Origin: a virus
DNA: 17,390 nucleotides
Reading direction: 5' to 3' (one strand)
UHGV virus genome: UHGV-0137727
A model generated the notes under the pieces. The model searched no databases. It had not been told where the DNA came from and worked only from the letters and a program-made list of their open reading frames with translations. Numbering within the stretch: position 1 is the stretch's first letter; every line of letters begins with the position of its first letter. The position numbers and the translations under genes were made by a program. Below are positions 3,028 through 17,390 of the stretch, piece by piece.

Positions 3028-3055
3028 ATTCTCTAACAATGCGAAACTATAACTA

Positions 3056-3077
3056 CCCGGCCCCGCGCCGGGTTTTT
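3056..3077 (+). terminator. rho-independent terminator (stem CCCGGC/GCCGGG, loop CCCGC, then TTTTT)
   Basis: GC-rich hairpin followed by a T-run, 20 nt upstream of the holin start. Confidence 0.55.
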
Positions 3078-4523: not shown

Positions 4524-5066
4524 ATGGCTAAGGCTAAAGGCATTAAGTTGCCTCACTTCAAGATCCCGCTTTTTGAGCATACCACTGTTTTCTTTTGCCC
4601 GACCCGCGAGATGTTCTATGAATTTTGCGAAAAGGCAGGAATTCCGATTGAACCTGATTTCGAGTTGGCTGGAGGATTAACGCTTACTTGCACTGGCGAG
4701 AATGGTGGTAACTTCTACGTGATCGCAGTATTCAACAATGAGTTGGGAACGCTGGTCCATGAATGCGCCCACACTACATTCCACGTTTTAAGTGATGTAG
4801 GCGTCGTGGCTACCACGGATCCTACCCATCCGGCGAATGAGACTTACGCTTACATGGTAGACCGTATCTTCGATGCGTTTTTCCCTATCATAGCAGAATC
4901 AAACGAAGCACAGGTTGCAGCAATGCAGGCGGCAGAAGTCGTCGATCAGGCGCTGGAACAGGCAGAACAGCCGAAGGAAGAGGAAAAACCCGCGAAGAAA
5001 GGCAAACGTAAGCCCAAAGCAAAAGAAGCGTATGTGCCGCGCGTAATGAGCTTTAAACGAGGCTGA
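4524..5066 (+). CDS. putative zinc-metallopeptidase-like protein (HExxH motif) with lysine-rich basic C-terminal tail
   Basis: ORF-track ORF with SD AGGAG 9 nt upstream. Motif LVHECAHTTFH (H79-E-x-x-H83) with a downstream Glu (ANETYAY) as candidate third ligand. C-terminus EEEKPAKKGKRKPKAKEAYVPR. Family not identified. Confidence 0.65.
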   Translation: MAKAKGIKLPHFKIPLFEHTTVFFCPTREMFYEFCEKAGIPIEPDFELAGGLTLTCTGENGGNFYVIAVFNNELGTLVHECAHTTFHVLSDVGVVATTDPTHPANETYAYMVDRIFDAFFPIIAESNEAQVAAMQAAEVVDQALEQAEQPKEEEKPAKKGKRKPKAKEAYVPRVMSFKRG

Positions 5067-5068
5067 TT

Positions 5069-5158
5069 ATGATTGCGTCAATATTAACGTTTATGGGTGG
5101 CGTGGCGTTCGGATTCATTATTTGCCTGTTTATGGTGATTATGTCTATGCGAGGCTGA
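5069..5158 (+). CDS. micro-ORF 1 of hydrophobic peptide array (29 aa)
   Basis: MIASILTFMGGVAFGFIICLFMVIMSMRG*. SD GAGG 7 nt upstream. The junction GAGGCTGATTATG is duplicated at the next ORF. Confidence 0.4.
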   Translation: MIASILTFMGGVAFGFIICLFMVIMSMRG

Positions 5159-5160
5159 TT

Positions 5161-5256
5161 ATGGACGCTTACATCATCGCCGGATTAATTGGTATTTCTG
5201 TATTTCTGGTGAGTTTTGTTATTGCCGTACTGATAACCGTAAAAAGCAAGTATTAG
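5161..5256 (+). CDS. micro-ORF 2 of hydrophobic peptide array (31 aa)
   Basis: MDAYIIAGLIGISVFLVSFVIAVLITVKSKY*. SD GAGG 6 nt upstream. Single hydrophobic helix with basic C-terminus. Confidence 0.4.
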   Translation: MDAYIIAGLIGISVFLVSFVIAVLITVKSKY

Positions 5257-5269
5257 ATGGGGTGGCAAG

Positions 5270-5344
5270 ATGATTGACCCGCTAATTATCCTTTCTGCCT
5301 GCGTCGCTGTATGGCTGGCGATCATGATATTCATTGAAAGCTGA
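5270..5344 (+). CDS. micro-ORF 3 of hydrophobic peptide array (24 aa)
   Basis: MIDPLIILSACVAVWLAIMIFIES*. G-rich SD-like sequence GGGGTGG upstream. Confidence 0.35.
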   Translation: MIDPLIILSACVAVWLAIMIFIES

Positions 5345-5437
5345 AGGTATTCACCATAAATATTTACGATCTCATCTGGTGGTCGTTGGTCGCCGTCATT
5401 ATCTATTTCTGGTGGAAGAATGTTGTATAGGTGAAGC

Positions 5438-5518
5438 ATGAACGCATACGAAATGCTATTGCTGGTGGCTGTTATTACAGTTATTGCCGTAGATGTTTAT
5501 CGGGAGTTTAAAAAATGA
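5438..5518 (+). CDS. micro-ORF 4 of hydrophobic peptide array (26 aa)
   Basis: MNAYEMLLLVAVITVIAVDVYREFKK*. Upstream AGGTGAAGC-ATGAACGC is repeated at micro-ORF 6. Stop overlaps the next start (ATGA). Confidence 0.4.
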   Translation: MNAYEMLLLVAVITVIAVDVYREFKK

Positions 5519-5583
5519 AATGGCTTGATTTCTTTTTCCTGGTCGTTGCGATTGTTCTCACTATGACCGCGCTTGCTCAATAG
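5515..5583 (+). CDS. micro-ORF 5 of hydrophobic peptide array (22 aa)
   Basis: MKWLDFFFLVVAIVLTMTALAQ*. SD GGGAG upstream. Start overlaps the stop of micro-ORF 4. Confidence 0.4.
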   Translation: MKWLDFFFLVVAIVLTMTALAQ

Positions 5584-5591
5584 GTGAAAGC

Positions 5592-5666
5592 ATGAACGCT
5601 ATTGATATTATGTTGATCGTGTGTACCGTTGCATTAGTTATTATTGGGGTGATTATCAATGTCTGA
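5592..5666 (+). CDS. micro-ORF 6 of hydrophobic peptide array (24 aa)
   Basis: MNAIDIMLIVCTVALVIIGVIINV*. Upstream TAGGTGAAAGC-ATGAACGC repeats the context of micro-ORF 4; both begin MNA. Confidence 0.4.
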   Translation: MNAIDIMLIVCTVALVIIGVIINV

Positions 5667-5727
5667 TGGTGATTTCTTAATCATGGCTATATGCACGCTG
5701 TTAACTGTTATTGTTTTCTTCGCGTAA
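5659..5727 (+). CDS. micro-ORF 7 of hydrophobic peptide array (22 aa)
   Basis: MSDGDFLIMAICTLLTVIVFFA*. SD GGGGTG 8 nt upstream. Overlaps the end of micro-ORF 6 by 8 nt. Confidence 0.3.
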   Translation: MSDGDFLIMAICTLLTVIVFFA

Positions 5728-5736
5728 AGGTAAACA

Positions 5737-5820
5737 ATGAAAGAATTATTCGATTGGTTGGAAGTATTAACATACTGCGCAAGTTTTGTGGCTTGCGTAT
5801 ATATCATCAATAAATATTGA
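5737..5820 (+). CDS. micro-ORF 8 of hydrophobic peptide array (27 aa)
   Basis: MKELFDWLEVLTYCASFVACVYIINKY*. SD AAAGGT 5 nt upstream. Ends 11 nt before the terminase small subunit start. Confidence 0.4.
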   Translation: MKELFDWLEVLTYCASFVACVYIINKY

Positions 5821-5831
5821 GAGGTGAGATT

Positions 5832-6317
5832 ATGGCCCGCACTAAAAAGGCAAATGCTGACGATAAAAAGCCAGCCGCCAAAAAGGTGGGCCGTCCGCAT
5901 GGCTATACCGAAGAAAAGGCATTAGAGATCTGTGAGCTGGTGGCGGACGGTCAAAGCGTTAACAAAATTTCGAAAATGCCAGGTATGCCAACACGTTCGA
6001 CAATCCTTAAGTGGTTCCGTGATGTGCCGGAATTTTCGGACATGTACATGCGCGCGAAGGAAATAGGTTTTGAGGTATTAGCCGATGAGATCATCGATAT
6101 AGCTGATGCAGCGGAGAATATTGATAAAGATGAATTGCGCCGCCATCAACTGATGATTGAAACGCGCAAATGGTTACTGGCAAAACTGCAACCGCGCAAA
6201 TATGGAGAACGCGTCACACAGGAGATTGTCGGCAATAGGGAGGAGGCGCCAGTACAGGTGGAAGTAACGAAAGAAGAGATCGCCCGCATCGTCCAGGAAG
6301 TAGAAGATGAGGTGTGA
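5832..6317 (+). CDS. terS: terminase small subunit
   Basis: ATG 5832 with SD GAGGTGAG (track ORF begins at TTG 5817 in the same frame). Basic N-terminus, HTH-like segment (SVNKISKMPGMPTRSTILKWFRD), and the LLAKLQPRKYGER motif I associate with small terminase subunits. Sits directly upstream of the large subunit with overlapping stop/start. Confidence 0.75.
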   Translation: MARTKKANADDKKPAAKKVGRPHGYTEEKALEICELVADGQSVNKISKMPGMPTRSTILKWFRDVPEFSDMYMRAKEIGFEVLADEIIDIADAAENIDKDELRRHQLMIETRKWLLAKLQPRKYGERVTQEIVGNREEAPVQVEVTKEEIARIVQEVEDEV

Positions 6318-7946: not shown

Positions 7947-9320
7947 ATGCCATCCAATTTAGAATTGGCGGTTAATGCTGCCTTGTCTCAACGCCAGGCG
8001 GCCTTTGCCCGCTATGCAGCGGCACATCCGTTCACTATGGGGATAGATGCCAAACGTGATGCTGCGTGGAGTGAATACGGATTTAAAGAAGAAATCACCT
8101 ATGCCGATTTATACAAACTGTATCGTCGCGGTGGTATCGCTCACGGTGCTATTGAGAAGATCATTACTACGTGCTGGCGCACCAGGCCAACGCTGATTGA
8201 AGGTACGGAAGACGAGAAAGCGGAAAAGGAAACTTCGTGGGAAAGAGAAATCAAAAAACGATTCGACAATAGATTCTGGCGCGTAATTGCTGAATGCGAT
8301 CGCCGCCGCCTCATCGGTCGTTATGCTGGACTGTTAATTCACGTCAGGGATAACAAGCCGTGGGATCAGCCAGTAACAAAAGGCGTAGGCATTGCCAAAT
8401 TTACCCCCGTATGGGCTGGTGCTCTTACACCGAAGGACTTCGAAGAAAACCCGGATAAAGAAAACTATGGCCTGCCTACATGGTGGGAATACAAGGAGCG
8501 CATTAACAGTAAGACCATAGCAAGAAAGATACATCCAGATCGCATATTTATCTTCGGTGATTATTCTGATGATGCCATCGCTTTCCTTGAACCGTCCTAT
8601 AACGCATTCGTTTCACTGGAGAAAGTGGAAGGCGGCAGCGGTGAATCATTCCTGAAAAACGCAGCACGTCAACTGGCTATCTCGTTCGATAAAGAGATTG
8701 ATTTCCGTTCCCTGGCTGCAACATACGGTTGCGACGTTACAGAGCTACGCGAAAAATTCAATGAAGCGGCAGAGGATATAAATAAAGGTAATGATGTGAT
8801 GATGGCATTGCAGGGAGCTACCGTTAGCCCGCTGGTTACTGCCGTAGCCGATCCGTCCGCTACCTATGACGTCAACCTGCAAACCGCCGCCGCTGGCATC
8901 GACATTCCAACGCGTATCCTGGTTGGGAATCAGCAGGGTGAGCGTGCATCAACCGAAGACCTCCGCTACTTCAATAACCGCTGTATGACCCGCCGGGAGG
9001 AAATAGGAGGCGAGCTTGAGGAACTATTCCGCAAGATGGCAGATCTCCGCCTTATCAGTATGCCAGTAGACGTATCTGTGCTGTGGGACGACCTTAACGC
9101 CATGACAAAAGCTGAGCTACTCGACGCGGCATACAAAATGGCACAAATCAATCATGCATGTCTCGCTACTGGTGAGGAAATATTCAGCGGTGACGAGATC
9201 CGTGAAGCTGCCGGATACGATGGCCCGGCTAATGAAGTAGAACTGGAAGACGAGGAAAACGATGATGAAGGTGAAGAAAATAATCAGGCGAATACCTCCA
9301 GCCGCGATAATGCCATCTAA
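7947..9320 (+). CDS. portal protein (putative)
   Basis: ATG 7947 with SD AGGAG 8 nt upstream (track ORF opens at 7926). About 457 aa, directly downstream of terL and upstream of a minor head protein. Acidic C-terminus (ELEDEENDDEGEEN). Assigned by synteny, not by a recognised motif. Confidence 0.65.
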   Translation: MPSNLELAVNAALSQRQAAFARYAAAHPFTMGIDAKRDAAWSEYGFKEEITYADLYKLYRRGGIAHGAIEKIITTCWRTRPTLIEGTEDEKAEKETSWEREIKKRFDNRFWRVIAECDRRRLIGRYAGLLIHVRDNKPWDQPVTKGVGIAKFTPVWAGALTPKDFEENPDKENYGLPTWWEYKERINSKTIARKIHPDRIFIFGDYSDDAIAFLEPSYNAFVSLEKVEGGSGESFLKNAARQLAISFDKEIDFRSLAATYGCDVTELREKFNEAAEDINKGNDVMMALQGATVSPLVTAVADPSATYDVNLQTAAAGIDIPTRILVGNQQGERASTEDLRYFNNRCMTRREEIGGELEELFRKMADLRLISMPVDVSVLWDDLNAMTKAELLDAAYKMAQINHACLATGEEIFSGDEIREAAGYDGPANEVELEDEENDDEGEENNQANTSSRDNAI

Positions 9321-11515: not shown

Positions 11516-11944
11516 ATGTCTCGTTTTCGTCGTGTAAATATTGATGGTAAATCCATTACCGAAACCTACACTGCTAAGGTCGCAGTAAAACCAGGTGAAC
11601 TGGTAAAACTGGACGGAGGTAAGTTTGCAAAAGCAACCAGTGCTGATGTCGGTGCAGCTCAGTTGTACATCGTCAACCCGGCATTCCACGAAGGCAAAAC
11701 CATTACTGATGCAATCGCTGCAAATGAAACTGTTGTTGCTGATTATGTGGAACAGGGCCGAGAGTTTGCTCTCCTTGTTCCTGCAGCCGCTTATGTTAAG
11801 GGTGCAGCTATTGCTCTCGCAGCCGACGGGGTGAAACTGTTTGTTGCGCCAAGTGAACAGGCAGCGCCAGATCCGATCATCGCATACTGCCAGGAAGACG
11901 TAACCCTGGAGGCGGAAGATTTTATCCGCGTTCGCGTTGCTTAA
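11516..11944 (+). CDS. small head protein, possibly decoration/accessory (142 aa)
   Basis: ORF-track ORF with SD GGAGGG. Ala/Val-rich. Sits between scaffold and major capsid, as the decoration protein does in lambda-like modules. Synteny only. Confidence 0.4.
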   Translation: MSRFRRVNIDGKSITETYTAKVAVKPGELVKLDGGKFAKATSADVGAAQLYIVNPAFHEGKTITDAIAANETVVADYVEQGREFALLVPAAAYVKGAAIALAADGVKLFVAPSEQAAPDPIIAYCQEDVTLEAEDFIRVRVA

Positions 11945-11961
11945 TTTAAAAGGGGAAAAAC

Positions 11962-13026
11962 ATGTACTTTACAAAAGAAAACCTTGCCACCAACGCCCGT
12001 ATGCAGGGCCATTGGAAAGAACTGTGGGCGCAACGCAATATCTTCAACGAGCAGCACAACGCCATGATTGCTGCAAATCAGGCAAATATGACCGCTGAAA
12101 TGTTGACCTGTAACGCCGTCGGCGGCTTCGCAAAAGAATTCTGGAAAGAAATCGATAACCAGATTATCGAACTGAACACCGAAGAAATCGGTATTGAGAT
12201 CGTAAACGACCTGATGGGTGTGCAAACCGTACTGCCAATCGGTAAAACGCTGAAAATGTACAACGTATCCGGTGACATCGATGATGAAGTTGTGATGTCT
12301 ATGGATGGTCAAGCGCCACACGGCTTTGATCACACCGAATACGGCAGCGATGGCGACCCGATCCCGATGTTCGCAGCGGGTTACGGTGTTAACTGGCGTT
12401 TAGCTCAGGGCTTAAATACTGTAGGCATCGACCTTGCATTAGACAGCCAGCGCCTTAAACTGAAAAAATTCAACAAAGCACGCGTCCAGTTCTACCTGAA
12501 TGGTAACGATCGCATCGTGGTTGATGGTCATAAAGCAATGGGTCTTAAAAACCACAAAAACACCCAGCAACTTAAACTGAAAACTGTCGCTAAAATCGAC
12601 CTGACCACCGCGACTTTCGATAAGATTATTGAATTCTTTACCACTGGTGAGTTCGGGAAACTGGCCCGCGCCAACTTCGTAGCTAAATACGATGTAATGT
12701 GGGTATCGCCAGAAATCATGGCTAACCTGGCACGCCCACACATCGTTAATGGCGTAATTGTTGGTAGTGTACTGGATGTTATCAAGCCGTTTGTCCCGGT
12801 TGATGATATTCGCCAGACCTATGCGCTGACTGACAACGAATTTATCGCTTATCAGCGTAGTCGCGGCGTCATCACCCCGCTGATTGGCATGACCACTGGC
12901 GTAGTTCCGTTACCGCGCATGATGCCGACCGATAACTACAACTTCCGCATTATGTCTGCTGAGGGTCTTCAGATCACCTGTGATATGAAAGGTCGTTCAG
13001 GTGTGGTCTACGGCAGCAATACCTGA
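11962..13026 (+). CDS. major capsid protein (putative)
   Basis: ORF-track ORF with SD AAGGGG 7 nt upstream. 354 aa. Followed immediately by a strong intrinsic terminator, as is typical for a highly expressed capsid gene. Synteny-based. Confidence 0.7.
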   Translation: MYFTKENLATNARMQGHWKELWAQRNIFNEQHNAMIAANQANMTAEMLTCNAVGGFAKEFWKEIDNQIIELNTEEIGIEIVNDLMGVQTVLPIGKTLKMYNVSGDIDDEVVMSMDGQAPHGFDHTEYGSDGDPIPMFAAGYGVNWRLAQGLNTVGIDLALDSQRLKLKKFNKARVQFYLNGNDRIVVDGHKAMGLKNHKNTQQLKLKTVAKIDLTTATFDKIIEFFTTGEFGKLARANFVAKYDVMWVSPEIMANLARPHIVNGVIVGSVLDVIKPFVPVDDIRQTYALTDNEFIAYQRSRGVITPLIGMTTGVVPLPRMMPTDNYNFRIMSAEGLQITCDMKGRSGVVYGSNT

Positions 13027-13046
13027 TTGATATGTTTCCTGTAACT

Positions 13047-13073
13047 CCCCGGCGCGATGCCGGGGATTTTTTT
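13047..13073 (+). terminator. rho-independent terminator (stem CCCCGGC/GCCGGGG, loop GCGAT, then ATTTTTTT)
   Basis: Read directly; 21 nt after the capsid gene stop. Confidence 0.7.
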
Positions 13074-13091
13074 GTATGTGGAGAAAACAAA

Positions 13092-13478
13092 ATGGTCACT
13101 ACAGAACAGGCGCGGGAATATATTGAAAGCCAGGGTATTGACCTGCCAGACGTTATCTTATCTTTGCTGGTGGAGCAGGCAAATAGCGTTAATGAATGCC
13201 TTGATGCCAACTATCCGGCCTCCACTGCAACATTGATTCAGCTTTATCTGATTGGCCTGTTAGGACTAAGCCAGGCTGATAAATACGTTTCCTCGCAGAC
13301 TGGGCCGAACGGTGCGAGTCAGTCATACCGCTATGTCGATTTTAATAAGCGATGGAAGGCGGCCTATTCGTTGCTTTACTCACTGGACAAACACCATTGT
13401 ACAGCCGAACTAATTCCACCAGATCCAGAAAACACCGCGCACGCCGGGCTGTGGATTGGTAAGAGCAGGAGGGTGTGA
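13092..13478 (+). CDS. head-tail connector / head completion protein (putative)
   Basis: ATG 13092 with SD GGAG. The track ORF start at 13032 would read through the terminator hairpin, so the later start is preferred. Neck-module position. Confidence 0.5.
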   Translation: MVTTEQAREYIESQGIDLPDVILSLLVEQANSVNECLDANYPASTATLIQLYLIGLLGLSQADKYVSSQTGPNGASQSYRYVDFNKRWKAAYSLLYSLDKHHCTAELIPPDPENTAHAGLWIGKSRRV

Positions 13479-13666
13479 CAATGTGGAACGACCTGACATT
13501 ACCAAATCCAGTATTGCCGAAACCATTTACCCGCGTGTGGGTTAAAACGGATAGCGGACGCCAGGTGGCGGCCTACCTCAATGATGCTGGCTTATGGGTA
13601 ATTCTTTGCCCGCGCGTGGCGAAAACTCATCCAAAGGTCATTAGCTGGAGTTACGGCTATGAGTAA
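13475..13666 (+). CDS. small neck-module protein (about 61-63 aa)
   Basis: ORF-track ORF. Overlaps the upstream stop; SD AGGAGGG upstream. Start is GTG 13475 or ATG 13481. Confidence 0.45.
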   Translation: MTMWNDLTLPNPVLPKPFTRVWVKTDSGRQVAAYLNDAGLWVILCPRVAKTHPKVISWSYGYE

Positions 13667-14027
13667 GATTGCGCGATTCAGTTACAAGGCATTAGCCACC
13701 ATCTACCCCGTAACGCATGACGACTGGACAAACGCCGACGTATACGGCGCACCATACCTGATTAACTGCGCATGGGAGCGCACCGACGGCACTGCAACAG
13801 ACACAAACGGTAATGAGGTTAGCAATACAATAACCGTATTTACCGAACTGCTTCATAATATGCAGCCAGTACAGCGCCCGGAAAACGGCTGGATGATTGC
13901 CACTGGTGACACCACCAATATTACCGACCCGATGGCGGCAGGAGCCAACATTATTACCGGGATCGTTGAATGGGATATGAGCATGTTTAACGATACGCCG
14001 GATTATAAGATCGTGACAGGGGGTTAA
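13659..14027 (+). CDS. head-tail joining protein (putative)
   Basis: ORF-track ORF. Overlaps the upstream gene end, consistent with translational coupling in the neck module. Confidence 0.45.
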   Translation: MSKIARFSYKALATIYPVTHDDWTNADVYGAPYLINCAWERTDGTATDTNGNEVSNTITVFTELLHNMQPVQRPENGWMIATGDTTNITDPMAAGANIITGIVEWDMSMFNDTPDYKIVTGG

Positions 14028-14029
14028 TC

Positions 14030-14494
14030 ATGCCTATCAGGGGAGTTAAACGCGTCCGTGAGAGATTAAAGCAGGAGCTAAAGGAAATCACCGATAAAAA
14101 GACGCACGAAGTTTTATGGCGCGTCGGTATGCTGGCTGGTGGCTTTGCGGCAAACATGACACCGGTTGATACGGGTTTTTTAATTAACAGCCAATTTCAA
14201 TATATAGGTAACACGGCGGAGGGTATGCAGTTACGGCTGGGATATACAGCCCGTTACGCTGAATGGGTGCACAATATGCCAGGCACATTAAAAGGCCAGC
14301 CGCGTGAACATTTCGGGAAAACAAATAACCTTTCAGATTTCGGGCCGAAACAGGTAATTGAGTTCGGCGGCGGTACTGGCAAAGGTAAATATTGGGACCC
14401 AAACGCGGAGCCGGAATTCTTGCGCAAGGCATTCGAAGATCCAAACAACGCCGACGATATTTATAAAGAGATTGTAGAAGGTTACAAAACATGA
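14030..14494 (+). CDS. neck / tail-completion protein (putative)
   Basis: ORF-track ORF. Tightly coupled to its neighbours (ATGA overlap with the next gene). Synteny only. Confidence 0.45.
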   Translation: MPIRGVKRVRERLKQELKEITDKKTHEVLWRVGMLAGGFAANMTPVDTGFLINSQFQYIGNTAEGMQLRLGYTARYAEWVHNMPGTLKGQPREHFGKTNNLSDFGPKQVIEFGGGTGKGKYWDPNAEPEFLRKAFEDPNNADDIYKEIVEGYKT

Positions 14495-14877
14495 AACGCA
14501 GCGAAGTATACGACGAAATAAGGGATTGGATTAAATCCCACGGGTACGATAAAGGCTATATTTTGCAGGCCCGTTTCTGGAATGAAAAATCCAATTCGAA
14601 TAACGACCGATACATTGTTATCCAGCAAAACGGCGGCGCGGCTGGTGAAGAAGCAATAACCCGTGATTATTTTCGCATCCTGGTTATTTCAGCGCGTAAT
14701 GATGCAAATATCTGTGAAGTGGAAGACCTGGCCGATGCCATCCGTCAAAGTATGTTAACAGAATATAAAACTGATAAAATTACACACATGAAGCCAGTTG
14801 GCGCTATTCCTGCGATGCAGACAAGAGAAGGGCGCTTTATTTTTACCGTAGCTTTTCAATCCATCATATCCAGATAA
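14491..14877 (+). CDS. tail terminator / tail completion protein (putative)
   Basis: ORF-track ORF. Last small gene before the major tail protein. Synteny only. Confidence 0.45.
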   Translation: MKRSEVYDEIRDWIKSHGYDKGYILQARFWNEKSNSNNDRYIVIQQNGGAAGEEAITRDYFRILVISARNDANICEVEDLADAIRQSMLTEYKTDKITHMKPVGAIPAMQTREGRFIFTVAFQSIISR

Positions 14878-14890
14878 GAGGTAAACCAAT

Positions 14891-15367
14891 ATGTCCGAAA
14901 CCTGTAAATCCGGTGCGTTTACCGGGCGTGATGTTGCCGTGTTCTATGCCATTGCTTGTCCCAGCGCGAAACCGGAAGAGGGTGGCTACAAGCCGTTAGG
15001 TATGATGCGCGGCAAAACGCTTTCCGTAGAATGGGAATCCGCAGACGCTACCGCTGATAAATCCGCCGACTATACCAAAGAGTCGCTGGTTACTTATAAA
15101 TCAGTGAGCTTCTCTGGTGATGGTGTTTCACGTAGCGATGATACATACAACCAGAAAGCACTAAAACGGCATGTAATGTCTCCGGGCACTGCTACCGGAA
15201 ATCAACCATATGTGTGGCTGAAAATTGTCAGTGCCACCGATGTAACCGAGGGGCCATTCCTTTGCACCTCCTTCAAAGAAGAGGCTCCGTATGATGATGT
15301 GACGACCTGGTCTATCGAGTGCGAAAGCGCTGGCCAGGTAACTGTAACCGATCCGGTTGCTGCGTAA
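14891..15367 (+). CDS. major tail (tube) protein (putative)
   Basis: ORF-track ORF with SD AGAGGT. 158 aa. Followed by a strong intrinsic terminator, then chaperone and tape measure. A small tube protein points to a non-contractile tail. Confidence 0.6.
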   Translation: MSETCKSGAFTGRDVAVFYAIACPSAKPEEGGYKPLGMMRGKTLSVEWESADATADKSADYTKESLVTYKSVSFSGDGVSRSDDTYNQKALKRHVMSPGTATGNQPYVWLKIVSATDVTEGPFLCTSFKEEAPYDDVTTWSIECESAGQVTVTDPVAA

Positions 15368-15374
15368 ACAATAA

Positions 15375-15400
15375 GGGGGCTATTTAGCCCCCTTTCTTTT
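15375..15400 (+). terminator. rho-independent terminator (stem GGGGGCT/AGCCCCC, loop ATTT, then TTTCTTTT)
   Basis: Read directly; 8 nt after the major tail protein stop. Confidence 0.65.
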
Positions 15401-15412
15401 AGGGTGAAGACT

Positions 15413-16090
15413 ATGATTCATGTTCGTACCGGACAATTTGTGGCTATGGTGAACGGTAAGCGCTATGAATTTAACCCGTGTTTCGCTGCGATGGCTAAAA
15501 TCGGTAATGACAGGGAGCTTGTGGAATATTTCGCAACCATCCACGGTAGCAAATACCCTTCACGATTACCTACAGATCCAGACCTCCGCAATCGCATTAT
15601 GGCGCGGTGTTATGGTGGGATAGTGCAAACGTCAATGCACATCCTGAAATGTTGCTCAGACGACGAAACAGGCCCGTTATTGGGCGAATGCTGGTTTACT
15701 CCTTCGGGCAAATTAAGGTTAAAGCCCGGAATAATGCCAGTTGATGATGTTATTACGCTGGCGCAACACTGCATGTACCACGGTTTAATCGGTGACGGGC
15801 CGGAAGAAAATACAAGCGAGATCCGGGAAGGTGAATACAAGCCGACATTTGATGTACTTGATTTCGTTTATTCTGCCGTTGCTCATCTGGGATTATCTGA
15901 ATCAGAAGCGTGGAACATGACAATGACCGGATACAGGGCCGCAGTGCGCGCTAAAACGCCGCCAGACGAAAGAAATGAAAGAAGTAGACCAAATGTTCAC
16001 ATAAATAAACGTGCTTATGACGAGCAAATGGAGGCTGCTAAAAAGGCGCTAAAAAGAATGGAAAATCGCAAGCAAGAAAAAGCCCGGTAG
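15413..16090 (+). CDS. tail assembly chaperone (putative)
   Basis: ATG 15413 with SD GGGTGAAG (track start GTG 15404). Lies between major tail protein and tape measure. Charged C-terminus. No slippery heptamer or frameshift partner ORF was identified. Confidence 0.45.
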   Translation: MIHVRTGQFVAMVNGKRYEFNPCFAAMAKIGNDRELVEYFATIHGSKYPSRLPTDPDLRNRIMARCYGGIVQTSMHILKCCSDDETGPLLGECWFTPSGKLRLKPGIMPVDDVITLAQHCMYHGLIGDGPEENTSEIREGEYKPTFDVLDFVYSAVAHLGLSESEAWNMTMTGYRAAVRAKTPPDERNERSRPNVHINKRAYDEQMEAAKKALKRMENRKQEKAR

Positions 16091-16098
16091 ATCCGGGC
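16082..16098. terminator. bidirectional intrinsic terminator (stem GCCCGG/CCGGGC, loop TAGAT), A-run upstream and T-rich downstream
   Basis: The hairpin contains the chaperone stop codon. On the minus strand it is followed by TTTTTCTT, 8 nt after the stop of the reverse-strand gene. Convergent transcription ends here. Confidence 0.55.
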
Positions 16099-16105
16099 GT
16101 TTGTC

Positions 16106-16531
16106 TTATTTGATTCTAACAATATCAATAAAACCGTTACCTAAATCGACAATTGCGTGATTTTTTGCACCAGCGCCGCCTTTATTAAAAATTCTTTCAG
16201 CGAAAGCAACTTTATTTGCTTTACACTCGTTAGCTATCCTGTTTTTTATTTCGCTGTTGTTTTCAAAGACTACGCCTACAGCAGCCTCGTTTACAAGGCC
16301 ATAATTAAACCAACGAGCATAAACTGGTTTACCTTCAAAATTTTTATCAATTGCCTTAAAAAGAATTGTGGGTGCGGCTGGTTCTTTTTTGATCATGTCG
16401 TGATATGCGGCTACATGGTTTGCCACTTCTTCACAGTTAATGTTTATGGCCTCGTTAGCGTTAGCGTTAGCGTTAAATGCTAGTGCAGCAATCACAGCAA
16501 GCACCATTTTTGCTAACCGTTTCATAATCAA
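16106..16531 (-). CDS. secreted/periplasmic protein of unknown function (141 aa, N-terminal signal peptide)
   Basis: ORF-track ORF on the minus strand. SD AGGGGG lies 6 nt before the second ATG (16523-16525), the more likely start. Signal peptide MKRLAKMVLAVIAALAFNANANAN with repeated AxA cleavage motifs. Two Cys in the mature part. Opposite in orientation to all flanking structural genes. Confidence 0.7.
   Translation of the reverse strand: MIMKRLAKMVLAVIAALAFNANANANEAININCEEVANHVAAYHDMIKKEPAAPTILFKAIDKNFEGKPVYARWFNYGLVNEAAVGVVFENNSEIKNRIANECKANKVAFAERIFNKGGAGAKNHAIVDLGNGFIDIVRIK
16454..16475. repeat. tandem hexanucleotide repeat (GTTAGC on +, AACGCT on -), about 3.7 copies, encoding (Asn-Ala)n
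   Basis: Read directly. Lies inside the signal-peptide/cleavage region of the minus-strand gene. The unit length of 6 preserves frame. Confidence 0.6.
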
Positions 16532-16593
16532 CCCCCTGTAATTATTCTGATTTGCTAAATGCTTCCTTTAACTTAGTTATACACGCATATTGT

Positions 16594-16677
16594 TTATTTT
16601 TTAAGTGCTTTTAACATTTCTTCGATAAGGTCCGCATAGCGTTCATATTCGTTGGGACGGTAGTTTACGTTTCTCAT
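16594..16677 (-). CDS. candidate micro-ORF (27 aa) upstream of the secreted-protein gene
   Basis: Minus-strand ATG preceded by SD AGAGGA at 7 nt spacing. Translates MRNVNYRPNEYERYADLIEEMLKALKK*. Hydrophilic. Not in the ORF track. Supported only by the start context and position. Confidence 0.3.
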   Translation of the reverse strand: MRNVNYRPNEYERYADLIEEMLKALKK

Positions 16678-16828
16678 TTTCTTATCCTCTTTCACTTCCT
16701 CCGGGACATCCGGCCTTCCTGCATCTCTTCTATCTTTCTCTACATCATCTATACAAAACGGTATCGTTAAAATAAAGACATTTTGTATAAAATAGATGCA
16801 TAGATCACATTTTGCATGAGGTTAAATC

Positions 16829-17390
16829 ATGGCTACCAGTGTAGGCACAATTTATTACGAAGTTGACGCAAAAACAGGACAACTTCTTGTAGCACAACGA
16901 CAGGCAGACCAGGCCTTTGACCGTATAGAGCGCGGTGCTAAACAGGCCGATCGCCAGGTAAACACACTGAAAACATCAATCAAAGCACTGACCAGGGTTA
17001 TCCATCTGCTAATTGCTGCCGAGGCCGTTAGACAGTTTATGGAAATGGCAGAGCAGGCCAAAATGCTACGCGTCAAAATCAAAATGCTTACAGGCGACGC
17101 GGAATCTGCCGGGCGGGTTTTTGATGGTCTGAAAGAAATATCCAGGGAGACGGGGCAGAGCCTGAAAGATACTGGCGAATTATGGCAAGGCCTGGCTATC
17201 TCACTAAAAAACACCTCCGCTACGGAAGGGCAATTGCTTAACCTGGTTGGCACTATTCAGAAAATGGGTGCATTAGGCGGCGCGTCAGCGGAACAGATGT
17301 CTAACTCAATGCGTCAATTCCGTCAGTCTATCGACGGCGGTGTTCTTCGTGCCGAAGAATTTAACAGCCTGCTTGAAAACACGCCGACCA
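16829..17390 (+). CDS. tail tape measure protein, N-terminal part (continues beyond the window)
   Basis: ATG 16829 with SD GAGG 7 nt upstream. Frame is open to the window end (187 codons). Helical, Ala/Gln/Leu-rich sequence. Canonical position after the tail chaperone. Confidence 0.75.
   Translation, partial: MATSVGTIYYEVDAKTGQLLVAQRQADQAFDRIERGAKQADRQVNTLKTSIKALTRVIHLLIAAEAVRQFMEMAEQAKMLRVKIKMLTGDAESAGRVFDGLKEISRETGQSLKDTGELWQGLAISLKNTSATEGQLLNLVGTIQKMGALGGASAEQMSNSMRQFRQSIDGGVLRAEEFNSLLENTPT

Follow-up and report, generated by a model that had tools for sequence, protein, structure and literature searches.

A minus-strand accessory unit with exchangeable cargo between the DUF6246 and tape-measure genes of an mEpimmI-group phage, and its possible role in superinfection exclusion

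Layout of the DUF6246/tape-measure junction

The window, which means here the whole 17,390-nucleotide stretch of UHGV-0137727 that was analysed, comes from a member of the mEpimmI/mEp021 group of E. coli siphophages, which are of the temperate prophage type. The junction between the DUF6246 gene and the tape-measure gene (hereafter, the slot) and its two flanking genes contain the following features.

15413..16090, plus strand: DUF6246 family gene, upstream boundary of the slot (Pfam PF19759, E = 3.6e-54)
16082..16098, strand not assigned: G+C hairpin GCCCGG-tagat-CCGGGC, 3' boundary of the slot (terminator scan, both strands)
16106..16525, minus strand: cargo gene T1, encoding the precursor of a predicted exported protein (open reading frame and translation, dN/dS, homologues)
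16594..16677, minus strand: conserved micro-gene of 27 amino acids, MRNVNYRPNEYERYADLIEEMLKALKK (codon-position bias, in-frame length changes)
16750..16789, strand not assigned: inverted repeat TATACAAAA(T/C)G-N18-CATTTTGTATA, 5' boundary of the slot (near-invariant in relatives)
16784..16793, plus strand: TG-TATAAAAT element with a possible -10 hexamer, TAAAAT, at 16788-16793 (nearly invariant)
16829..17390, plus strand: 5' part of the tape-measure gene, downstream boundary of the slot (Pfam TMP_3 PF20155, E = 1.1e-30)

When the minus strand is read, the order is the inverted repeat (16750-16789), the micro-gene (16677..16594), the cargo (16525..16106) and the hairpin (16098..16082). The earlier note on this DNA had described an antisense gene and a micro-ORF embedded in a co-directional structural operon, and both open reading frames were confirmed on the minus strand; a plus-strand open reading frame of 108 amino acids (16157..16483) was dismissed as the mirror image of the T1 gene. 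The block had also been called AT-richer than its flanks, and this was borne out: GC content was 0.368 over 16099-16828, versus 0.479 in the upstream structural genes (11516-16098) and 0.496 in the 5' end of the tape-measure gene, and only 1 of 43 consecutive 400-nt segments was lower than the dip at the slot.

The tape-measure protein matched several tape-measure PHROGs, and its gene has the ribosome-binding site GAGG at 16818-16821. The DUF6246 protein belongs to PHROG 791 (function unknown), gave a weak Pfam match to Phage_TAC_6 (E = 0.26) and had no solved relative in the structure search; its putative label as a tail assembly chaperone comes from position alone (the interval between the tail-tube and tape-measure genes).

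The stop codon of the DUF6246 gene (TAG, 16088-16090) lies within the loop of the hairpin, whose folding energies with the flanks were -15.5 and -15.8 kcal/mol. The stem, GCCCGG-N5-CCGGGC, was invariant in 7 phages while the loop varied, and the hairpin was present in every related junction with sufficient sequence, also in lineages whose tape-measure protein was only 31% identical. In deposited records it is marked as a terminator, either on one strand or on both, and Rfam gave a sub-threshold rimP-leader match only. The hairpin had previously been taken as a bidirectional terminator. It was indeed called on both strands; however, the minus orientation has a much better T-run (TTTTTCTT) than the plus one (GTTTGTCTTA), and we predict an intrinsic terminator of the minus-strand unit with a weaker terminator-like site on the plus strand.

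It had been argued further that this terminator blocks read-through from the late operon and that the tape-measure gene would need its own promoter. That argument is weak, because the plus strand of this operon has stronger terminators further upstream, one behind the capsid gene (13046-13066) and one behind the tail-tube gene (15373-15394), because the mEpimmI group has been described as dependent on N-like and Q-like antitermination (PMC11893012), and because the hairpin is the weaker in the plus orientation. The promoter scan found no sigma-70-like promoter after the tail-tube terminator, and the sole plus-strand promoter call downstream of 7,900 was inside the capsid gene, upstream of both terminators.

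The cargo gene T1 and its product

Three further features concern the 5' part of T1 and the sequence preceding it.

16454..16525, minus strand: signal-peptide-coding segment, residues 1-24 (n, h and c regions in the translation)
16453..16475, minus strand: hexanucleotide tandem repeat, CGTTAG x 3.8, encoding the (Asn-Ala)n c-region (Tandem Repeats Finder)
16532..16593, minus strand: 62-nt spacer separating the stop of the micro-ORF from the cargo start and containing GGGGG (specific to the allele type of the window)

The open reading frame extends over 16106..16531 and gives 141 amino acids if a TTG start is used, as in the earlier annotation; relatives conserve the ATG at 16525 instead, which gives 139 amino acids and has the ribosome-binding site GGGGG (16532-16536) 6 nt upstream. 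Among the cargo types listed, the others have their ATG about 12-15 nt after the micro-ORF stop, versus 62 nt in UHGV-0137727. Pairwise dN/dS of T1 against 10 informative alleles was 0.05-0.22; thus, T1 is a real gene under purifying selection. AT-rich DNA holds many open reading frames, and several GenBank records annotate plus-strand frames here instead, as would fit chance frames in an AT-rich spacer or a decaying remnant. These dN/dS values and the third-position bias of the micro-ORF (see below) refute such an artefact, against which the conserved start codon, ribosome-binding site, signal peptide and two cysteines of T1 and its confident structure model also stand, and we give it a negligible probability. 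The plus-strand annotations in those records are likely wrong and are corrected by the minus-strand reading.

By inspection, the N-terminus of T1 consists of the n-region MKRLAK (+3), an 11-residue core (MVLAVIAALAF) and the c-region NANANA with A-x-A sites; cleavage is predicted after ANA, at residue 21 or 23, the next residue being Asn. A charged n-region, a core within 7-15 residues, small residues at -3 and -1 and no Cys at +1 are the features of a type I (LepB-cleaved) Sec signal. No lipobox ([LVI][ASTVI][GAS]C), by which exclusion lipoproteins of the Cor, Llp and Lpp type are recognised, was found in T1, and no Cys occurs before residue 31, in agreement with the classical signal peptide without lipobox that had been proposed. 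The pattern was kept in 14 T1 homologues, in which the number of NA units per allele was 2, 3 or 4, and the signal-peptide core is the only hydrophobic segment. Judged from its sequence, the product seems to be exported and cleaved without being a lipoprotein, and a periplasmic location is likely. The cysteines at positions 31 and 101 were invariant among the homologues. The AlphaFold2 model (pLDDT 81, pTM 0.80) has five helices and a C-terminal beta-hairpin, with low confidence for residues 1-25.

The homologues of T1 form 16 protein clusters (69-100% identical), all from E. coli or Caudoviricetes. An exhaustive HMMER search of 1.84 billion representatives placed T1 in just one 50%-identity cluster, plus a fragment. 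The same search returned three long repeat proteins, whose homology to T1 was rejected after close reading of the EF-hand-like repeat in one of them (P0019), because the score was that of the repeats added together and the position-12 ligand of the loop was missing. In T1 itself, the loop-like DKNFEGKPVYAR has Arg at position 12, where the 12-residue loop of an EF-hand has Glu or Asp among its acidic ligands; at position 1, some homologues have Asp and others Asn, and no EF-hand match was found with Pfam. All six genomic places inspected had T1 in the DUF6246/tape-measure slot; the family was not found in bacterial chromosomal contexts and is confined to one phage group.

The earlier statement that the protein could be assigned to no known family held across the sequence and fold searches. 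Pfam gave noise only (TPR_5, E = 0.14), PHROGs gave no match, NCBIfam gave only DbpB (16.6 bits against a cut-off of 250, driven by the signal peptide), the PDB sequence profile search gave E above 0.5, and Foldseek against viral structures gave a best E of 0.15. With PADLOC-DB 2.0, neither T1 nor three other cargo proteins matched a defence model at E up to 1. Thus, no similarity of T1 in sequence or structure to known exclusion proteins was detected with Pfam, PHROGs, PADLOC and Foldseek, and in the comparison with HK97 gp15/YebO no Pfam, NCBIfam or PHROG family rose above noise.

Occupancy of the slot and cargo exchange in related phages

Relatives were divided into close ones, with DUF6246 proteins at least 68% identical (n = 45), and distant ones, with 26-42% identity (n = 21 scored). 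All 45 close relatives carry minus-strand cargo at the junction, with a gap of 640-1275 nt, whereas in 17 of the 21 distant phages the gap between the two genes is -4 to +77 nt (the genes also overlap in L054). An insert lacking from relatives, as the earlier note had envisaged, was therefore found with respect to most of the distant phages but not with respect to the close ones. In the eight relatives checked, the GC content of the gap was 0.39-0.45 versus 0.47-0.58 in the flanks. Extra DNA between otherwise adjacent genes, deviant GC content and an own predicted terminator, which are among the features of a moron in the sense of Juhala and Hendrix (PMC3594210), are all present. A moron in that sense also has its own promoter, for which no sigma-70 consensus site was called on either strand in 15300-17390, and is expressed from the repressed prophage. 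Since all close relatives carry cargo and most distant ones have adjacent or overlapping genes, the unit is a derived insertion and a true moron, and we are confident that it is a moron cassette in a conserved exchange slot.

The cargo is the part that changes. T1 occurs in 17 of 45 related junctions, so that it is not a virion component conserved in all relatives. The cassette has sharp edges: the flanks are 64-100% identical (mostly 79-90%) versus 30-59% across other cargo types. At least 12 cargo architectures were found in the slot, all on the minus strand. Most cargo proteins have a type I signal peptide, a lipobox (LVGC, LTGC or IAGC in cargoes other than T1) or transmembrane segments. 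Three families of lipoproteins could be distinguished, three or four periplasmic families are orphans, and small membrane proteins also occur. One of the lipoproteins belongs to the VasI/TagO family (PF11319, 58 bits), and another has weak, below-threshold similarity to BamE and OsmE. Note that not all cargo is envelope-directed, since some partner genes (for 106-aa and 74-aa proteins and a micro-protein) have no export signal. When T1 of the mEp021 type is compared with T2b, the cargo of L038, identity is 94% over the first 66 nt of the gene, versus 52% (background) over nt 67-300; the signal-peptide-coding segment is likely the 5' recombination arm for cargo exchange. That T1, T2/T2b and T3 are diverged alleles of one gene was rejected, the profile-profile probability of the mature parts being below 1%.

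A variable gene of the structural module that helps in the lytic cycle (lysis, genome delivery or tail maturation), and is not expressed from the prophage, might also be found inside the tail cluster beside the tape-measure gene, in a slot filled in every close relative. We consider this very improbable for T1, which runs antisense to the late operon, ends at a terminator of its own and has lower GC content. The cargo types are, moreover, mutually unrelated, T1 is absent from 28 of 45 related junctions, and most of the distant relatives have no gene there. The T1 homologue in mEp021, gp63, is annotated as 'hypothetical' beside genes labelled 'virion structural protein'.

The micro-ORF, previously a candidate only, has the ribosome-binding site GAGGA at 16685-16689 (7 nt upstream), and its product is a cytoplasmic, helical-looking peptide. 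Among 20 distinct alleles, the numbers of variable sites at the first, second and third codon positions were (4, 2, 15), (2, 2, 5) and (3, 2, 12), and alleles differ by in-frame lengths, one of which is a 3-nt gap in the DNA alignment; the micro-ORF is coding and under purifying selection. Independent gene callers call it as a 29-aa gene, and its homologues, searched for with an artificially extended 44-aa query, are confined to this phage group. It was found in 33 of 45 junctions, with the cargo types T1, T2, T2b, T3, T5 and T7, among which are five unrelated ones. It is thus a conserved leader gene of the minus-strand unit, outside the variable insert to which the earlier note had assigned it. 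The slot is fixed between conserved boundaries, which are the hairpin at one end and the micro-ORF with the inverted repeat at the other; the exchange is confined to the cargo.

The region of the inverted repeat (16700-16828) is the only conserved non-coding DNA upstream of the minus-strand unit. One set of IMG/VR loci was retrieved via the conserved motif and contains it by construction; retrieval with the DUF6246 protein, in which the motif was not used, is free of that bias and also gave loci with the inverted repeat conserved. The predicted RNA fold was -18.4 kcal/mol (z = -4.7) on the minus strand versus -9.4 kcal/mol (z = -1.9) on the plus strand, and a T-to-C change in the left arm in UHGV-0137727 gives a G-U pair in the minus RNA and a C-A mismatch in the plus RNA. 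The inverted repeat is a candidate divergent promoter/operator region, or RNA hairpin. The TG-TATAAAAT element, earlier proposed as a tape-measure promoter, was identical in the relatives recovered, barring two with TATAGAAT; the only -10 variant seen, TAGAAT, retains the A at position 2 and the T at position 6. The best -35 for TAAAAT is TTAAAA here and TTGAAG in relatives, with a spacing of only 15 nt. Although the element is present and nearly invariant, the consensus scan called no sigma-70-type promoter on either strand in 15300-17390, and the stretch at about 16750-16793 may be a weak tape-measure promoter. Searches by hand for a sigma-70 promoter of the minus-strand unit yielded only poor candidates, which were rejected; in TTTACT-17-TATAAA the last T of the -10 is absent, and UHGV-0137727 has TATAGA.

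These elements could be the functional core of the locus, with the micro-gene and the inverted repeat acting as a regulator or a cis element for tape-measure expression and the cargo hitch-hiking. The inverted repeat could, for example, be a promoter, an operator or an RNA-processing hairpin, needed since the antisense unit interrupts the late operon. In the distant relatives, the chaperone-position and tape-measure genes overlap, so that the insertion must have disturbed their coupling. Such a role would fit the invariance of the inverted repeat across lineages with tape-measure proteins only 31% identical, the -10 variation that spares two key positions, and the purifying selection on the micro-ORF independent of cargo type. 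However, the micro-ORF is missing from 12 of 45 junctions, the cargo itself is under strong purifying selection, the scan calls no promoter, and no covariation supports an RNA structure, the last because the arms of the inverted repeat hardly vary. As the main explanation of the locus, we regard it as improbable; it complements the moron reading rather than excluding it.

Proposed role of T1 and comparison with known systems

We propose that the locus is an antisense accessory unit from which a periplasmic superinfection-exclusion protein is expressed by the prophage, a reading that, taken as a whole, we judge to have an even chance of being correct; for T1 by itself, exclusion is a tentative assignment, somewhat short of an even chance. 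The results above establish the anatomy of the unit, its conservation and selection, its derived insertion, the exchange of cargo and the export signal, whereas expression in the lysogen, the periplasmic location, the exclusion activity and its target are inferred. In the lysogen, the late operon would be silent and the minus-strand unit would be transcribed from its own promoter. Such transcription is assumed by analogy, because no canonical sigma-70 promoter was found for the unit. The 139-aa precursor would be exported by Sec and cleaved after Ala-Asn-Ala, and the mature protein, folded in the periplasm, would be small and helical with a single disulfide. T1 would then protect the lysogen; its likeliest mechanism would be a block that acts after adsorption of a superinfecting phage, at the passage of the tail tip, the tape-measure protein or the DNA across the periplasm. 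The hairpin terminator would stop transcription before it enters the tail genes in antisense. During lytic growth, terminator-resistant late transcription would cross the slot to the tape-measure gene, perhaps with the help of a weak local promoter. Cargo is exchanged by recombination between the conserved flanks, and at least one exchange has its breakpoint at the end of the signal-peptide segment.

T1 occurs in mEp021, which is OmpA-dependent, as well as in mEp010, which is LamB-dependent, and masking of the phage's own receptor was rejected as the leading mechanism. The exclusion lipoprotein Lpp021 is identical in mEp021 and mEp515, although their slot cargoes differ (T1 versus T2); thus, the receptor-matched exclusion lipoproteins of this group cannot be the slot cargo. 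Since T1 is not tied to receptor choice and the Lpp lipoproteins are encoded elsewhere, a later step is favoured over receptor masking.

The same lack of correlation with receptor usage would suit a lysogenic-conversion or fitness factor that alters the host envelope (in stress, against colicins or type VI effectors, or in gut interaction), the slot being a general store of envelope genes. The VasI/TagO-like and weakly BamE/OsmE-like lipoproteins among the cargo, neither known as an exclusion protein, point in that direction, as does the precedent of the lambda morons lom and bor, which have such roles (PMC3594210). On the other hand, T1 resembles no known fitness factor, its restriction to one phage group fits a role of phage against phage better, and exclusion is the role of HK97 gp15, its precedent in position. 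We consider a fitness factor possible but rather unlikely, and retain the exclusion reading. More speculatively, and in our opinion unlikely, the slot might be a dedicated platform for cargo exchange (control region, leader and signal-peptide adaptor) with a family-wide arsenal of periplasmic, lipoprotein and membrane cargo, T1 included, directed against the tape-measure-mediated genome delivery of competing siphophages, the leader or the repeat tying expression to lysogeny. On such a platform, new mature domains could be acquired by homologous recombination and would be exported immediately; the leader protein is 27-29 aa long.

Morons at the chaperone/tape-measure junction are textbook material, so the existence of one here is unsurprising, and the slot illustrates a familiar kind of element well but does not define a new one. 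Its value is that of a natural experiment: a phage group prevalent in the human gut has a fixed antisense slot with at least 12 mostly envelope-directed architectures, none of them characterised. The 2025 description of the group (PMC11893012) never uses the word 'moron'. The cargoes form a compact panel of candidate superinfection-exclusion or lysogenic-conversion proteins, testable on an existing set of phages (mEp010, 013, 021, 044, 515 and 554). Should T1 block genome delivery, it would represent a soluble exclusion factor of the periplasm, a class that is, to our knowledge, poorly documented in E. coli phages; the exclusion proteins studied best to date are anchored in the membrane or are lipoproteins, rather than soluble proteins of the periplasm.

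The closest comparison is gene 15 of HK97, the first moron named, which encodes an inner-membrane exclusion protein expressed by the prophage and lies at the same junction (PMC3594210), as the earlier note implied in calling this the classic moron position. The deviant GC content, own terminator, small envelope-targeted protein and temperate E. coli siphophage are also common to both. HK97 gp15 is YebO-like and blocks genome entry, with a specificity set by the tail region of the incoming phage. It is recognised by YebO similarity and an N-terminal membrane anchor, and by Pfam it has no sequence relationship to T1. The slot described here differs also in being antisense to the tail operon and in having a leader micro-gene, an inverted repeat and exchangeable cargo. 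Its presence is fixed in all close relatives, unlike that of HK97 gene 15, which Cumby et al. in 2012 reportedly found absent from most close relatives of HK97.

The moron of Pseudomonas phage JBD26 encoding Tab and anti-Tab lies between the terminase genes, and Tab blocks the tail assembly of the invader inside the cell; T1 differs in having an export signal. Within the mEpimmI group, Lpp021 and Lpp010 are prophage-borne envelope proteins that are encoded in the structural cluster and exclude members of the group (PMC11893012). They are lipobox lipoproteins matched to the phage receptor (OmpA or LamB), whereas T1 has no lipobox. Extracytoplasmic exclusion proteins that block genome injection are exemplified by Ltp of Streptococcus phage TP-J34 and by Sp/Imm of T4, which lie outside the cytoplasmic membrane and interfere with tape-measure or tail-tip function after adsorption, as is proposed for T1.

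Minus-strand genes between the DUF6246 and tape-measure genes

In the window, which has lysis and structural genes, all genes assigned with confidence are on the plus strand. The interval between the DUF6246 and tape-measure genes (738 nt; hereafter, the slot) has a GC content of 0.368, compared with 0.479 upstream and 0.496 downstream, in line with the AT-richer block that the earlier note had described by eye. The features of the region are listed below.

Features in and around the slot
14891-15367, plus strand: tail-tube gene (Phage_tail_2)
15413-16090, plus strand: DUF6246 gene, after the tail-tube gene
16082-16098, terminator-like on both strands: hairpin GCCCGG-tagat-CCGGGC, overlapping the DUF6246 stop codon
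16106..16531, minus strand: cargo ORF (T1), as called
16453-16475: hexanucleotide tandem repeat CGTTAG x 3.8, encoding the Asn-Ala c-region of the T1 signal peptide
16594..16677, minus strand: micro-ORF (27 aa), with GAGGA 7 nt upstream
From 16829, plus strand: tape-measure gene (TMP_3)

The coordinates in the earlier note were all correct, but the start codon of the cargo ORF is likely the ATG at 16525, which is kept in relatives (139 aa; GGGGG 6 nt upstream). The hairpin, read there as a bidirectional terminator, was called terminator-like on both strands, with a good T-run in the minus orientation (TTTTTCTT) and an interrupted one in the plus orientation (GTTTGTCTTA). Elsewhere in the window, the stretch 5066-5817, between a 180-aa ORF and a small-terminase-like gene, is without a plus-strand ORF of at least 55 aa and holds two minus-strand ORFs (5185..5439 and 5634..5900; GC, about 0.41); this stretch might serve for regulation or as a second accessory slot.

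The cargo gene and the micro-ORF are genuine genes. The T1 protein had 16 homologous clusters (69-100% identity), with E. coli and uncultured Caudoviricetes as their only sources; at 50% identity it fell into one cluster in a set of 1.84 billion representatives. Pairwise dN/dS of the alleles was 0.05-0.22; the start region, the signal peptide, the cysteines C31 and C101, and many core residues were invariant, and the gene was found between DUF6246 and TMP_3 in 6/6 genomic places inspected. For the micro-ORF, until now a candidate, 20 distinct DNA alleles were found, with variable sites by codon position of [4,2,15], [2,2,5] and [3,2,12] and with in-frame length differences (one of which shows up in the aligned DNA as a gap of 3 nt); the micro-ORF is therefore coding. 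Several GenBank records annotate plus-strand ORFs over the slot stretch, which are probably mis-calls; the distribution of variation over codon positions favours the minus-strand gene of 27-29 aa instead. Plus-strand 'hypothetical proteins' antisense to the micro-ORF are in the records of MagusPhagus (locus L001, 5251-5355), mEp515 (L004, 4256-4375), mEp554 (L005, 4221-4406), and mEp044 (L006, 4146-4325).

As the earlier note had stated, T1 lacks a lipobox and has a signal peptide (n-region MKRLAK, an 11-residue hydrophobic core, and c-region NANANA containing A-x-A sites). The CGTTAG copy number differs among T1 alleles, giving 2, 3 or 4 Asn-Ala units, so that slippage in the repeat alters how long the c-region is and how many A-x-A cleavage sites it has, with the frame kept. 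The AlphaFold2 model (pLDDT 81, pTM 0.80) has five helices and a C-terminal beta-hairpin, with a low-confidence N-terminus. Searches with T1 gave no family, defence-system or fold match, so that the protein is still without a known family. The stretch ILFKAIDKNFEGKPVYARWF (16286-16348; T1 residues 60-80) resembles an EF-hand helix-loop-helix and drives spurious matches to long repeat proteins; the EF-hand was rejected, and calcium binding appears unlikely, because loop position 12 is Arg and the ligand is missing.

Cargo exchange at the slot

Two independent collections of related junctions were made, one with an invariant 18-mer that precedes the tape-measure gene (46 IMG/VR contigs) and one with the DUF6246 protein (76 loci). 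DUF6246 and the tape-measure gene were 640-1275 nt apart in 45/45 loci with DUF6246 at least 68% identical. Twelve architectures were found among the 45 junctions with both boundaries; the recognisable cargo genes were all on the minus strand, and T1 was present in 17. The other cargoes were as follows.

Other cargoes of the slot
Minus strand: three further type I signal-peptide proteins (119, 116-117, and 165 aa)
Minus strand: VasI/TagO-family lipoprotein (219 aa; PF11319, 58 bits)
Minus strand: 124-aa lipoprotein (BamE similarity weak, below threshold)
In a more distant lineage: 245-aa lipoprotein
Minus strand: 100-aa two-helix membrane protein with a 35-aa single-helix partner
Minus strand: a few proteins without an export signal (106 and 74 aa)

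Modules are also stacked: T1 with the 124-aa lipoprotein in locus L045, and T1 with a small membrane peptide in locus L132. Identity to the window was 64-100% (mostly 79-90%) in the flanks and 30-59% in the other cargo types, and profile comparison of the mature domains of T1 and the signal-peptide cargoes T2/T2b and T3 found no similarity. Between the mEp021-type T1 and T2b (locus L038), the first 66 nt were 94% identical and the next 234 nt 52%; the remaining cargo pairs were 48-74% identical in the signal-peptide-coding segment. The recombination breakpoint is at the end of that segment, at least in the T1/T2b (L038) pair. The element is a slot and not a single insertion event; the added finding is that throughout the phage group this slot is fixed and its cargo exchangeable, with a leader micro-gene that is conserved.

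The VasI/TagO-family cargo, a type VI secretion-accessory-like lipoprotein on a prophage, was seen in L008, L011, L016 and other loci, and in L098 (3695-4339), and is named TagO by RefSeq in E. coli strain M1/5. The 33-35-aa single-helix membrane peptide (MD.IK.IIDVY..AW.AFNVM.V.VLA...; L132, 2917-3018; L006, 4046-4153) is an independent module, whose partner is either the 100-aa membrane cargo or T1. A comparison of L076-L078, L097, L098 and L003 with the other relatives divides the tape-measure protein, over its first 187 aa, into two very different types (at least 83%, or 31-46%, identical to the window), over which the cargo types are unevenly spread: T2, T3, the mEp013 stack (a 59-aa membrane protein and the 124-aa lipoprotein), the 245-aa lipoprotein, and one VasI-like lipoprotein occur with the divergent type. 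This uneven spread may reflect either linkage or shared ancestry.

Slot boundaries and tape-measure expression

The 3' boundary of the slot is the hairpin, of which the stem is invariant and the loop varies. The 5' boundary consists of the micro-ORF (33/45 junctions, with five unrelated cargo types) and a near-invariant inverted repeat, TATACAAAA(T/C)G-N18-CATTTTGTATA (16750-16789), kept even where the tape-measure proteins are only 31% identical. Its right arm overlaps TG-TATAAAAT, the candidate promoter of the earlier note. This element is conserved except for one variant, TAGAAT, in which positions 2 (A) and 6 (T) of a -10 hexamer are kept, but the promoter scan made no call there on either strand and the best -35 is at a spacing of only 15 nt. 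As RNA, the inverted repeat folds at -18.4 kcal/mol (z = -4.7) on the minus strand and -9.4 (z = -1.9) on the plus strand, because the one change in the window's arms is read as G-U on the former strand and as C-A on the latter; this bias rests on one event and is not proof. The inverted repeat is a candidate divergent promoter/operator or RNA hairpin. The half-site CATTTTGTATA, a possible recurring regulatory site, occurs six times at no more than one mismatch (658-668, 1794-1804, 8110-8120, 9130-9140, 16750-16760 and 16779-16789; 0.61 expected; 0/200 shuffles reach 6); 29 nt past the right arm, directly before the tape-measure ribosome-binding site, is a degenerate third copy (16807-16817).

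The proposal that the tape-measure gene needs its own promoter is not supported, since stronger plus-strand intrinsic terminators already lie upstream in the same operon, after the capsid gene (13046-13066; 9-bp stem, T7) and after the tail-tube gene (15373-15394; 9-bp stem). The scan found no sigma-70-like promoter after the latter; beyond 7,900 it called a single plus-strand site, which falls within the capsid gene and precedes both terminators. The mEpimmI group is described as dependent on N-like and Q-like antitermination (PMC11893012). The simpler expectation is therefore that terminator-resistant late transcription reads through to the tape-measure gene; a weak local promoter is possible. 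Terminators inside the late block imply terminator-resistant transcription, or attenuation setting relative protein amounts. A further strong plus-strand terminator in this block (3055-3073) precedes a holin-like ORF.

Proposed role and moron status

The closest isolates were Escherichia phage MagusPhagus (86.6% over 15390-17334) and the mEp021 group (mEp021, mEp010, mEp013, mEp044, mEp515, and mEp554). These phages make up the mEpimmI group of temperate, Nus-dependent, non-lambdoid siphophages from human faeces, in whose description the word 'moron' is absent (PMC11893012). The T1 homologue of mEp021, gp63, is labelled 'hypothetical protein', and several adjoining genes 'virion structural protein'. 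The exclusion lipoproteins tested for this group, Lpp021 and Lpp010 (PMC11893012), were ruled out as slot cargo because Lpp021 is identical in mEp021 and mEp515 although their junction cargoes differ.

We propose that the prophage would express the minus-strand unit at a time when the late operon is silent, and that T1 would be exported, cleaved, disulfide-bonded in the periplasm, and block a post-adsorption step of superinfecting phages. Such a block is favoured over masking of the phage's own receptor because most slot cargoes are envelope-directed, because HK97 gp15, the precedent at this position, blocks genome entry, and because T1 is carried by both OmpA-dependent mEp021 and LamB-dependent mEp010. 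The main rival is a role of T1 in host fitness.

The moron reading was borne out by distant DUF6246 phages (26-42% identity), in which the gap to the tape-measure gene was -4 to +77 nt in 17/21 scored loci; in a Castellaniella prophage the two genes overlap. The insert is thus lacking in most distant relatives but present in all the close ones. The observation in the earlier note is confirmed, with its interpretation supported only in part. In a GC-rich lineage of distant DUF6246 phages (loci L107, 3630-4587; L108, 3630-5098; and L113), plus-strand morons, lipoprotein genes among them, were gained independently at this junction; their GC content is lower (0.44, compared with 0.51-0.58 in the flanks). 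HK97 gene 15, which encodes a prophage-expressed inner-membrane exclusion protein (PMC3594210), occupies the same junction and is the same kind of element. From these two cases, the junction has been invaded repeatedly. The window's element is a true moron, of a known kind, with an orphan cargo.
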